Below are positions 29,823 through 34,685 of a stretch of 64,000 nucleotides of DNA, piece by piece. The notes beneath the pieces were generated by a model. It made no database searches. It worked only from the letters and a program-made list of their open reading frames with translations, and had not been told where the DNA came from. Within the stretch, counting starts at the first letter, position 1, and every line of letters starts with the position of its first letter. A program made the translations under genes and the position numbers. Source of the stretch: Candidatus Marinacidobacterales bacterium (GTDB taxonomy: Bacteria; Acidobacteriota; Vicinamibacteria; Marinacidobacterales; SMYC01). The DNA lies in NCBI GenBank assembly GCA_965237955.1, contig OZ250169.1, positions 7,040,001 through 7,104,000 of the forward strand, written 5' to 3'.

Positions 29823-32800
29823 ATGGATTTCTTTCGCTCGTCGGTGCGGGAGTGGTTCGACGCGAGCTTCGAAGCCCCGACCCGTGTGCAGCGGGAAGGC
29901 TGGCCGGTGCTCGCGCGCGGGGAGCACGCTCTGTTGCTTGCTCCCACCGGGAGCGGCAAGACGCTGGCGGCGTTTCTGTGGGCTATCGACCAAGTCACGC
30001 GCCTCGAGCCCGACGCCACGCCGGGCATCCGCATTCTCTACGTGTCGCCGCTCAAAGCGCTCGTATATGACATCGAGCGGAACCTGCGAGCACCTCTTGC
30101 GGGAATCCGACGCCGGTCCGAGCGCGAGGACCAAGAGCTTCGCAGCGTCCGCGTCGACGTTCGCACCGGTGACACGTCCCCTAAAGAGCGTCGACAACAG
30201 CTTCGCGATCCCGCCGACATCTTGGTGACGACGCCGGAATCGCTGTTCCTGATTCTCGGCTCACAAGCTGCCGCGAACCTAACCCAGGTACATACCGTTA
30301 TCGTCGATGAGATCCACTCGCTCGCGCCGACGAAACGCGGGGTTCACTTGGCATTGTCGCTCGAGCGCCTCGACGAGCTGACACCGAGCGAACCGCAGCG
30401 GATCGGGCTCTCGGCGACAGTGCGACCCCCGCGCGACGTGGCGCGCTTTCTTGGCGGCGACCGCGATGTTCACATCGTCGACGCGAGCGAGCCGGCACAC
30501 ATCGAGCTCTCGATCTGCGTTCCGATTCCGAACATGGAACAAGTTCCGCCACCCAAACCGGTTCCTGCCACCGACGACGGCGGCGCCGTTGCCGGGAAGC
30601 TCGCACGCACAGAAATGCCTCCGGCACGCGAACCGGGCTCGCTCTGGTCCGAGATCTATCCGAAGCTACTCGAGCTCGTCCAAAAACACCGCTCGACCAT
30701 CGTGTTCGTGAACAGCCGAGCGCTCGCCGAGCGACTCGCGCAACGACTGAACGAGCTCGCCGACACGCCGCTCGTGCGCGCGCACCACGGGAGCGTGTCC
30801 CACGCGAAGCGCAACGAGATCGAAGAGGCGCTGAAGAGCGGCGCCCTCAAAGGGCTAGTGGCGACGAGCTCGCTCGAGCTCGGGATCGATATGGGCGCGG
30901 TCGATCTCGTCGTGCTCGTGGAATCTCCGGGCTCGGTCGCGCGCGGGCTCCAGCGCGTGGGGCGCGCCGGGCACGGCGTCGGCGAAACGAGCTTGGGAAT
31001 GATCTTCCCGAAGTTTCGCGGCGACTTGCTGGAGTCGACGGTCGTCGCCCAACGCATGCTCGCCGGTGAAATCGAATCTCTCAAGGTGCCGGAAAACCCC
31101 CTCGACGTTCTCGCGCAACAAGTGGTGGCACTTTGCGCTGACAAACCGCGCCACGTCGACGAGCTACAGGCGCTCGTTCGTCGCGCCGCCCCTTATCGGA
31201 ATCTTTCGCGCGACGCGCTGCTCGCCGTCATCGAGATGCTCTCGGGTCAATACCCGTCGCAGGATTTCGCCGACCTCAGGCCACGGCTCGCATGGGATCG
31301 CGCCCAAGACATCCTTACGCCGCGCAAAGGCGCCAAGATGATCTCGCTTCTGAACGCCGGCACCATCCCGGACCGCGGGCTCTACAGCGTCCACATCGGA
31401 GAAGGAGGCCCGCGCGTCGGCGAGCTCGACGAAGAAATGGTCTACGAGTCTCGGAAAGGTGAGGTCTTCTATCTCGGCGCGTCGTCGTGGAGAGTCGAGG
31501 CCATTACCCGCGATCGCGTGATCGTCTCTCCGGCCCCCGGTGAGCCGGGGAAGATGCCTTTTTGGCGAGGCGACGGCCCGGGCCGGCCGATCGAGCTCGG
31601 ACGCGCCATCGGTGCCTTTCTCCGGAAAATCGACGGCATGAGCACAGACGCCGCACGGCAGTGGCTCGAAGAGCACACGCCGCTCGACACACATTCGGCC
31701 ACGAATCTCGTCACCTACATCGAAGAGCAGAAAGAGCACACCGGCGCGCTCCCGACCGACCGCCACATCGCCGTCGAGCGCTTCCGCGACGAGCTCGGCG
31801 ACTGGCGGGTTTGTATCCTCACGCCGTTCGGATCACGGGTCCACGCACCGTGGGCGCTCGCGATCCAAAACCTTCTCAGCACCCGGACGGGCTACGAAGT
31901 CGAAACCATGTACACCGATGACGGGATCGTACTGCGATTCGCGGACGTCGAGGAGCTTCCCGATCTCGAGTGGCTTTTTCCCGATCCGGAAGAAGTCGAA
32001 GATCGCGTCGTCGAAGAGCTCGCTAACTCGGCCCTGTTCGCGAGCAACTTCCGCGAGAACGCCGCCCGGGCCCTGTTGCTTCCGAGGCGTAGTCCCGACC
32101 GGCGCACGCCGCTGTGGCAGCAACGCCTGCGCGCAAAGAATCTCCTCGCGAACGTCACCAAGTACCCATCGTTCCCCATCGTGCTCGAGACCTATCGGCA
32201 GTGTCTGAAGGACGTGTTCGACGTTCCCGCGCTAAAAGATGTGTTGCGGTCGGTAGCGAGCCGCGCAGTTCGAGTCAGTGACGTCGAGACCGCGACGGCC
32301 TCTCCGTTCGCTCGCTCGCTGACGTTCGCGTACGTCGCGAACTACCTCTACGAGCAGGACGCACCACTCGCCGAGCGCAAAGCACAAGCGCTCACGCTCG
32401 ATCGAAATCTCCTGCGGGAGCTTCTCGGCCAAGCCGAGCTCCGCGAGCTCATCGACGCCGAAGTGCTCGACGACGTCGAAGCGGAGCTCGCGGGACTCGC
32501 CGACGGCTGGAAAGCACGAAGCGCCGACGAGCTCGAGGATCTGTTGCGGCGAATAGGTGAGCTGAGCCGAGCGGAAATAGACGCGCGCACCACCGAGGAT
32601 CCGAGAGCTTGGATAGACAAGCTAGAGAACGAGCGCCGTTGTGTGCGCGTGCGCGTCGCCCACGAGAACCGCTACATGGCGGTGACCGATGCCGCCCGCT
32701 ATCGTGACGCTCTCGGCGTCGTGCCGCCGGCGGGTCTTCCTTCAAACCTGCTCGAGCCGACGGAGTCATCGCTAGAGGGCATCGTGCGCCGGTTCGCGCG

Positions 32801-34329
32801 TACTCACGGACCGTTTTTGACGGAGGCGCTCGCCGAGCGCTGGGCTCTGCTTCCGTCTCAACTCGAGGCGGTACTGGAGCTTCTCGAGGGCGAAGGCCAT
32901 CTCGTGCGCGGAGAGATTCGGCCTCTCGGAGTCCGTCCGGAGTGGTGCGACCCCGAAGTGCTTCGCCGTTTGAAACGCCGGACGCTCGCGAAGTTGCGAA
33001 AAGAAGTTGCTCCTGTCGAAGCGAGTGTTCTCGGTCGTTTTCTGCCCGAGTGGCACGGTGTGCGAAAACAAATGAGCGGCAGGTTGCGGCTCGAAGAGAC
33101 GCTCTCGCAGCTCGAAGGACTTCCTCTGCCGTGGTCGTCTCTGCTCGATGTGATCCTGCCTCAGCGCGTCAAAGACTTTCGACCCGAGATGCTGGACATG
33201 CTCTCCGCCTCGGGGACGATCGTTTGGGTCGGCGTCGGAGCCCTCGGTACTCTCGGTAATCGCGACGGCCGCGTGGCTCTCTATCGCCGCGATCGAGCTC
33301 CGATATTGTTGCCACCCCGGCACGCCTACGAGCCGCAGTCCGAACTCGAGGCGAAGATCCTCACCCACCTCGCCGAGCGAGGCGCCTCTTTCACGCTCGA
33401 GTTCGCGCGCAAGACGGAAGAGTTTTCCGTCTCCGAGCTGGAAGGATCGTTGTTGAACTTAGTGTGGGCGGGACAGATCACCAACGACACCTTCTCCCCG
33501 CTCCGCGGTCTAAAAAAGCGCACGCGCCGGGGTGAGCACGGGTCGTACGCGGACGGTCGGTGGTCTCTCGTGGCCGGGCTCATCGACGAGGGCGTGATCG
33601 ACACCGAACGCGCTCACGCGCGGGTCACCATGCTTCTCGAGCGCTACGGGCTCGTCAGTCGAACCGTCGCGCTGTTCGAAGATTTGCCCGGCGGCTACAA
33701 GGTGCTCTATCCGTTGTTACGCGAAATGGAAGAGCGCGGGCGTCTACGTCGCGGCCACTTCGTCGAAGGACTGTCCGGCTCGCAGTTCGCCCTCCCGGCG
33801 GCGATCGAGCGGCTCCGTGCGGTTCGAGACCAGCTTACCAACGCAAAGAGTCCAGACGAGGAAGTAGAGGCTTATCTCGCCGTGGATCCGGCGAACCCGT
33901 ACGGCTCGATTCTTCCCTGGCCTCAGCCCGCGACCGAGCGGCGGGCACGCCCGCGCCGCGTTCCAGGCGCATGGGTGGTCCTATATAAAGGGGATTATAT
34001 ACAATAGTCACGACCGCTCCGTGACTATTGTATATAATTCCCTATATAAAGGTAGGCTCGTGCTCTACATGGAAAAAGGCGGCCGGACTCTGCTGACGTT
34101 CGGCGAGCTCACCGAGCCGGGCGTGGCGAGGGCAGCGTTCCGAAAGCTCACGACACTCCCTAGACGCCGGCCGAACCGACTCCGCATCGAGGCGATCGAC
34201 AACGATGTGCCGACGAAGAGCCCCCACGAGACGCTTCTGAGCGAGCTCGGTTTCTTCCCGGACGTCACTTCGATGGTTTATGCTGAGACGCCCACCGCTG
34301 ACAGTCAGGCCGCCGATCGGATACATTAG
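29823..34329 (+). pseudogene. lhr: Lhr-family large helicase, split near the 3' end by a MITE
   Basis: APTGSGKT, YVSPLKAL, DEIH, SAT, QRVGRAGH, RRGHFVEGL, DPANPYG; VVLYKG/RLVLYME is interrupted at 33990. Confidence 0.92.
33990..34042. mobile_element. 53-bp MITE, IS1595-family (ISNwi1-like ends)
   Basis: 23-bp TIRs GGG(G/A)ATTATATACAATAGTCACG around a 7-bp spacer; 8-bp duplication TATATAAA at 33982-33989 and 34043-34050. Confidence 0.88.
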
Positions 34330-34361: not shown

Positions 34362-34685
34362 ATGGAACATACGTATGACTCACTGAAACAGAAGACCGTC
34401 GCGGAGCTCCGGGAAATCGCGGACGCCATGGACCACGAGAAAGTCCACGGTTACAAGTCGCTCCACAAAGAGGATCTCGTCAAGCTCCTGTGCGGGGCTT
34501 TGGGGATCGAGGCTCAAGAGCACCACGCGGTGGTCGGCATCGACAAGGCCAAGATCAAGGCGCAGATCCACGTTCTCAAGCAAAAACGGGCAGCCGCGAT
34601 CGAAGCACACGACGCGAAACAGCTCAAGTGGACACGCCTCAACATCAAACGCCTCAAGCACAAGATCAGACGGGCGACCGTCTGA
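34362..34685 (+). CDS. Small basic protein with Rho-N-like helix-extension-helix domain
   Basis: LKQKTVAELREIA...GYKSLHKEDLV; AGGAG RBS. Confidence 0.75.
   Translation: MEHTYDSLKQKTVAELREIADAMDHEKVHGYKSLHKEDLVKLLCGALGIEAQEHHAVVGIDKAKIKAQIHVLKQKRAAAIEAHDAKQLKWTRLNIKRLKHKIRRATV

Follow-up and report, generated by a model that had tools for sequence, protein, structure and literature searches.

A 53-bp insert made almost entirely of two terminal inverted repeats splits lhr in the 64,000-nucleotide stretch of a Candidatus Marinacidobacterales genome analysed here (the window). Such a piece could be a very small mobile element that entered the gene as it now stands, or it could be what is left of a longer element that has since gone. 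Which of the two is it, and by what route would it have come to be there?

The insert consists of 23 + 7 + 23 bp, and its repeats are identical at 22 of 23 positions, the sole mismatch lying at position 4. The two repeats, the 7 bp between them and the copies of TATATAAA on either side, all described in a sequence-only reading of the window, were re-derived at the same coordinates (Table 1), and removal of 61 bp restored the peptide given in that reading. The 53 bp contain no ORF of their own, no transposase and no interior; the piece is a remnant and not an autonomous member of the IS1595 family. A search of the 8.1-Mb genome for hairpins with 20-bp arms returned 210 matches (about 46 loci). 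Because only two of the 210 have an exact 8-bp flanking repeat, the structure is not attributed to chance, and the second of these hairpins is an IS end-only relic too. When folded as RNA the insert scored z = -9.7, with none of 200 shuffles equally good, and the lhr transcript is predicted to contain a strong hairpin at this point. No promoter- or terminator-like sites overlapping the insert were found.

Table 1. Features of the insert and of lhr (window positions), and the IS1-like relics, 32-41 bp long, of the same genome (G000, positions on C1)
Feature	Position	Strand	Description
Truncated lhr ORF	29823..34007	+	1394 aa: 1389 native residues plus GDYIQ from the insert; stop at 34005-34007
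Left target-site duplication copy	33982..33989	.	8 bp, TATATAAA; single copy at the empty site in L010 and L013
Left terminal inverted repeat stub	33990..34012	+	23 bp, IS1595 type; 21/23 with the repeats of transposase-bearing L058/L059; supplies the premature lhr stop
Spacer between repeats	34013..34019	.	7 bp
Right terminal inverted repeat stub	34020..34042	-	23 bp; identical to one IS end of G015 (L029:8021)
Possible restart ORF	34021..34329	+	102 aa; would start at a GTG in the right repeat and shares the frame of the orphaned end
Right target-site duplication copy	34043..34050	.	8 bp, TATATAAA
Orphaned lhr 3' end	34051..34329	+	92 codons; NF007284 positions 1461-1529
IS1-like relic	C1:923384-923415		
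IS1-like relic	C1:3869587-3869620		
IS1-like relic	C1:4136606-4136643		
IS1-like relic	C1:6433933-6433965		
IS1-like relic	C1:6537149-6537185		
IS1-like relic	C1:6628767-6628802		
IS1-like relic	C1:7181155-7181195		
IS1-like relic	C1:7926530-7926562		

The insertion is real and varies between close strains. Six of the 24 sequencing runs listed were compared, as assembled contigs and not as raw reads; two RNA runs, with no more than small shares, were left aside. The sequence-only reading had suggested looking for empty-site reads, and named as refutations a lack of reads spanning both repeats and the presence of the insert in orthologues. Single contigs cross both repeats with no differences in two of the six runs, X1 (depth 23.5) and X2 (depth 4.35), so that the insert is not a collapsed assembly; X1 may be the source run of the assembly, and X2, whose sample code is also that of X4, a run with the empty site, may not be independent. 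The empty site, with the 61 bases skipped, was found in the other four (X3, X6, X4 and X7), and the left flank in X3 and X6 differs by one base in about 260-300. No allele with a full-length element at the lhr site was seen in the six runs compared. Among 19 loci examined in relatives, three gave no match and the insert is missing from all 16 with an alignable site. Other contigs of runs X2, X4 and X7, matching at window positions 34020-34055, have a related IS end, and the flank next to it agrees with the lhr target over 13 bases (in X2 and X4, with one difference over 32). This likeness may reflect a target preference extending beyond 8 bp or a selection effect of the contig matching.

Judged by sequence, the ends of the insert are of the IS1595 type, as had been proposed. 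The matching repeats of L058/L059 (Table 1) bound two 3751-bp elements in G018, which have 8-bp duplications, as the insert does, an IS1595 transposase (a 316-aa ORF exceeding the cut-offs of NF033547 and PF12762) and a methyltransferase passenger. Both ends of the insert also fit the motif that the sequence-only reading gave for the ISNwi1 group of IS1595, a candidate subgroup for the insert. The genome itself has eight IS1595 transposase-domain matches and four complete IS1595 elements with 8-bp duplications. The further copies and the autonomous partner that the sequence-only reading had proposed to look for in the genome did not appear: there is no second copy of the 53-bp piece at up to five mismatches and no resident partner with the same ends, the best resident IS1595 end agreeing at 17 of 23 bases. 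In other GTDB genomes the 23-mer is found unchanged once, at a lone IS end in G015, a member of the same family; JGI metagenomes gave no exact match. Read from its right end, the insert agrees with this orphan end over 26 straight bases (28 of 30). The G015 end was rejected as a parent, since it stands alone next to a methyltransferase passenger and no transposase was found within 16 kb. DNA-methyltransferase passengers are carried by the IS1595 elements at L058/L059:535-2894 and L029:8068-10550; in both, a short ORF (about 60 aa) without an NCBIfam match lies next to one end.

The sequence-only reading had not recognised that the insert is one of a recurring class across two IS families: about forty end-only relics came to light in G000 and in genomes related to it, and almost every one has a sequence of its own. 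A search of 401 genomes for two neighbouring ends of this type yielded a single match besides G000, a 48-bp perfect palindrome in G247. Other IS1595-type relics are those of G458 (44 bp), G405 (91 bp) and one viral contig (46 bp), together with 12 loci from metagenomes. These 12 represent 11 distinct loci of 40-70 bp, nine of them at 40-53 bp, with an exact duplication in six, 7/8 in one and none in four. In all, 15 IS1595-type relics were found elsewhere (40-91 bp), and among the 16 that include the lhr insert no two are identical. An exact 8-bp duplication flanks nine of the 16, all of 40-53 bp; one other has 7/8, one is offset by a base and five have no duplication. The exceptions in size are relics of 67 and 70 bp, without duplication, and the 91-bp one, which has perfect 40-bp arms. 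Length clustering gave P values of 0.015 and 0.004 for windows chosen after the data were seen. Mis-cutting at inner ends, considered because the repeats are partly palindromic (4-6 of 9 matches across eight repeats), was set aside.

The G247 relic is the most informative of these with regard to parentage, since nine full 2105-bp copies in that genome share its 23-bp repeat and the relic itself is single. It reads 23 + 2 + 23 and interrupts a 453-codon frame. Its two extra bases are absent from the parents' sub-terminal bases and interior; an interior template was considered and dropped, the longest match being 5 bp, below most shuffles. No parent with the relic's ends was found in G405 or in G458, the latter a 60-contig draft. 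A class-wide IS1595 search of 301 genomes returned the lhr insert and L085 only, of which L085 was discarded, and viral scans for other IS1595 variants returned none. Also set aside as chance or ordinary matches, with no exact duplication and poor arms, were L107, L109, L117-L122 and L084, as was L085; L108 proved to be an ordinary 257-bp MITE-like element. L077/L083, the G054 pair and L163/L165 looked like elements present at two places; each proved to be a single locus and was counted once.

The 91-bp relic of G405 (L123, C3:2070681-2070771) has a TTGACA motif in both of its arms and has the look of a single end copied back upon itself. At L073:501-540 a 40-bp relic and its 8-bp duplication make up 48 bp, the frame is open over the whole locus, and the relic may add 16 codons to an intact protein. 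In G247 (L086-L103, L110-L114) the flanks of several of the nine full 2105-bp copies do not match, and an additional end lies about 830 bp upstream of two copies; these signs point to rearrangement among them.

The second family was encountered in G000. An unbiased scan of this genome for repeats of at least 12 bp with 7-10-bp direct repeats, at 28-100 bp, gave eight loci: the lhr insert, six IS1-like relics and one unassigned 83-bp match. Later searches added two more IS1-like relics, one with a 7/8 duplication and one with none. The 8-bp duplication is exact at six of these eight relics, several of which interrupt long frames, and removal of the relic restores a long frame at five of the eight loci tested. 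The gene split by the 41-bp relic (L128, C1:7180486-7181792), judged by eye to be presumably of the PilT-type ATPase kind, keeps a second frame break after removal of the relic. A size spectrum of end pairs in G000 up to 9 kb, with a duplication of at least 7/8, fell into two groups in each family: 53 bp (n=1) versus 1.4-7.2 kb (n=4) for IS1595-like pairs, and 32-41 bp (n=7) versus 2.2-2.9 kb (n=3) for IS1-like pairs.

Similar relics are present across the order. There are 24 IS1-like matches of 30-41 bp in eight of 55 genomes, corresponding to 23 loci and 22 sequences, with an exact duplication in 16 and 7/8 in four. When the same 55 genomes were searched at 32-432 bp, all 11 matches measured 33-41 bp, about twice the shared repeat, and no IS1-like end pairs were found at 42-432 bp. 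G000 and G015 have one 32-bp relic in common, with the same sequence at different sites; a junction that recurs could explain this, and so could mobility. Two G000 relics have the same parent repeat with different junctions and are therefore taken as separate events. The IS1-like transposase of the full copies, one of them at G000 C1:6448193-6451084, scored 28 bits against PF03400 (cut-off 24.1) and 61 bits against NF033558, below its cut-off of 100, and its plasmid homologues are annotated as IS1 family; a six-frame PF03400 search of G000 gave nothing, and the IS1-like label rests on the protein scan and the plasmid annotations.

In the wider phylum, 18 of 401 genomes matched. Among the matches listed, seven places measure 33-38 bp (exact duplication at five of the six checked) and the others measure 82-407 bp, multicopy MITEs included. 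MITEs with IS1-like ends do occur in the phylum and look unlike the relics: among the matches listed they are at least 82 bp long, with up to 28 matches in one genome. Six viral IS1-like matches represent five loci, of 35, 36, 39, 42 and 54 bp, with an exact duplication in one; the 54-bp locus exceeds the size ceiling and has no duplication. The genome with 28 matches (G194, L167) holds a MITE family of about 99 bp with IS1-like ends and internal repeated motifs, and a related set of about 120 bp, also with internal repeated motifs, occurs in G316, G236, G391 and G192 (L175, L177-L179).

The junctions within the relics were read by comparison with resident parent-like ends, which was possible for five of seven IS1-like relics, the other two having no parent-like end for one or both arms. 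They read 19+15 (with a 2-bp overlap), 19+1+14, 16+1+16, 20+17 (blunt) and 19+2+20. With G247 included there are six readable kin junctions, one with an overlap, one blunt and four with one or two extra bases, though these extra bases may derive from parent variants outside those compared. The junction of the lhr insert itself cannot be read, as its parent is not in the genome. Blunt, overlap and extra-base junction types are described for end joining in flies and mammals in the part of PMC2895639 consulted, and by analogy they would apply to joining by LigD. Ku and the LigD polymerase domain both exceed their cut-offs in G000; since 51 of 55 genomes of the order have Ku, finding it in G000 carries no discriminating weight. 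The relics as a class are size-limited stubs of both repeats between duplications, and the kin that exceed the size limit lack an exact duplication.

Because end-only relics recur and nearly all differ, because their junctions resemble those of end joining and because Ku and LigD are present, the 53 bp are best read as the end-joined donor-site scar of a full-length IS1595-type element in lhr, a reading to which we give a probability of roughly 0.55. A full-length element would have inserted into lhr and made the 8-bp duplication, and everything between its repeats would later have been lost. The break would have been made or bounded by transposase, which may have cut about one repeat-length inward from each end during excision; alternatively, an internal break may have been trimmed back to the transposase-bound repeats. 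The two stubs would then have been rejoined by host Ku/LigD end joining. The 7-bp spacer probably combines sub-terminal leftovers of the parent with the junction, and 53 bp may, for instance, have been reached with 26 bases of one end and 27 of its counterpart.

A more specific and more doubtful version of this reading takes the Drosophila P element as its model. Footprints of the P element keep short stubs of both repeats; the element differs in being eukaryotic and in having an unrelated transposase. The part of PMC7776569 consulted gives it an 8-bp duplication, as seen at the insert, and a second-strand cut 17 bp inside the repeats, after which the break left in the donor is closed by homologous recombination or end joining. 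On this model, IS1595 and IS1-like transposases would act by cut-and-paste with a second-strand cut about one repeat-length inside the ends, and Ku/LigD would heal the donor to a palindrome of 30-55 bp, a proposal we regard as tentative. The depth of the cut, which is equally speculative, would be about 20-21 nt in the IS1-like group and about 23-27 nt in the IS1595 group of the insert. No deep second-strand cut for IS1 or IS1595 was found in the literature searched. IEE-assisted excision offers another likeness, in that it is a transposase-dependent loss of IS, IS1 included, with joining of the microhomology type. IEE deletions, as far as the part of bioRxiv 10.1101/2023.06.07.543989 consulted goes, remove about the whole IS and extend into the flanks, whereas both ends and both duplications are retained here.

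The sequence-only reading had left the choice between a non-autonomous mobile element and the scar of an internally deleted IS. The scar is favoured over the mobile element because the piece is a single copy, no resident end exceeds 17/23 and its kin are nearly all unique singletons with variable junctions. A minimal MITE, formed elsewhere and inserted into lhr by an IS1595 transposase acting in trans, would fit the clean 8-bp duplication and intact ends, the transposase-domain matches in the genome, an insertion that looks recent though it has no exact parent here and the one 32-bp IS1-like relic that recurs in two genomes. We nonetheless hold it unlikely in view of the missing copies and poorly matching resident ends, the near absence of repeated sequences (22 among the 23 IS1-like loci, and 16 of 16 different in the IS1595 set) and the lone relic beside nine full copies in G247; a 53-bp piece may also be too short and stiff for its ends to pair. 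The insert resembles a MITE in being short and non-coding, with terminal repeats and a target duplication, and differs in being present only once and in having no autonomous partner in the genome whose ends match its own. IS1595-derived MITEs share with it the IS1595 ends, the non-coding sequence and the 8-bp duplication, but they are longer, multicopy and partnered: one paired with ISHwa6 has 165 bp, seven copies and an 8-bp duplication (PMC3852290, Table 4). MITEs in that table measure 89-570 bp, and those in the part of Table 1 of PMC3184786 consulted 104-435 bp. The de novo step of PMC3852290 discards sequences occurring fewer than two times, and end-only relics would therefore be missed by it. 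Compared with the IS1595-family IS of G018 (3751 bp, passenger-carrying) and G247 (2105 bp), the insert shares the 8-bp AT-rich duplication and has neither transposase nor interior.

Loss of the interior could also have proceeded without transposase, by replication slippage: while the DNA is single-stranded the two repeats would pair, and the polymerase would pass from one short direct repeat to the next and leave the loop uncopied. Tn10, in its nearly precise excision, likewise leaves a tiny inverted-repeat relic between target duplications, reportedly one of about 50 bp. Slippage of this kind would keep both ends and the duplication, would place the end points at the inner edge of the stem and agrees with those junctions that are short palindromes or overlaps. 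The Tn10 remnant, however, arises by copy choice between short direct repeats, as described in the part of PMC12524634 consulted, whereas five of the six readable kin junctions have no overlap. Slippage should also strike any IS with long repeats, and the unbiased scan of G000 gave IS1-like and IS1595-like loci plus the one unassigned match, a result that tells against slippage to the extent that G000 holds other IS families; slippage too appears an improbable source, if anything slightly more so than the MITE. One-step delivery, in which two transposase-bound stubs of a degraded incoming element were inserted together and joined by the host with no full element ever at the site, would give the same end product and junction types, and an exact parent is missing from G000, G458 and G405, three of the four GTDB genomes in which an IS1595-type relic was found. 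The relic of G247 and several of the IS1-like ones do have resident parents, however, and the draft state of G458 means that an absent parent proves little there; although by sequence alone it would look the same as an end-joined scar, we consider one-step delivery very unlikely. Least credible of all is an assembly artefact in which a full IS collapsed between its repeats. The doubts over the independence of X1 and X2, and the use of contigs in place of raw reads, speak for it; against it, independently assembled contigs span both repeats identically in two runs, G000 and G247 are single-contig assemblies with full elements alongside relics, and the junctions vary by single bases. Taken with these alternatives, the end-joined scar remains the preferred reading, and it would mean that a full-length element once stood in lhr, that the break was made or bounded by transposase and that end joining sealed it.

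Taken alone, the insert amounts to one broken helicase gene, and its weight lies in the class to which it belongs and in a mechanism that can be tested. Tools that depend on a transposase or on repeated copies pass over end-only relics, although these disrupt genes, and in G000 the IS1-like relics outnumber the intact copies by seven to three. Their size limit and junctions offer a cheap and direct test of second-strand processing and donor-site fate in IS1595 and IS1-like elements, of which no description was found in the literature searched. If the scar reading is true, these transposons have a little-known way of leaving a site, and bacterial end joining may rescue chromosomes after IS excision. 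If the P-element-like reading is true, earlier jumps are recorded genome-wide in these relics, and two large IS families have an undescribed cleavage chemistry. No description of end-only IS1 or IS1595 relics was found in the literature searched; subscription journals, ISfinder and supplements lay outside the search, and an earlier account may exist.

The gene that received the insert is the only lhr of the genome. The ORF encodes DEAD, Helicase_C, DEAD_assoc and Lhr winged-helix domains; it continues into the insert for five codons and then stops. The loss of the Lhr C-terminal region, as announced in the sequence-only reading, is confirmed in that the last 92 codons are cut off. A restart at the internal GTG of the right repeat was considered and is unsupported, the start sitting in the predicted stem. 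In an alignment with the Lhr of M. smegmatis (7LHL, 1507 residues), the break falls at about residue 1423-1425. The C-terminal domain of Lhr comprises five winged-helix modules followed by a beta-barrel at the end, according to the part of PMC8053096 consulted, and by this alignment most of the beta-barrel would be lost. Crosslink repair requires the C-terminal domain, as stated in the part of PMC9841417 consulted; the interface residues mutated there (915-1366) fall upstream of the break. In E. coli a glycosylase residue lies at 1536 of 1538 in the part of PMC10953399 consulted. The helicase core is retained and the last 92 residues are gone, which probably impairs the C-terminal repair function; the repair function of Lhr is likely to be lost in part. 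A 107-aa gene, on which the insert may have a polar effect, lies 32 bp past the end of lhr (window 34362-34685) and has a weak, sub-cut-off match to Rho_N.
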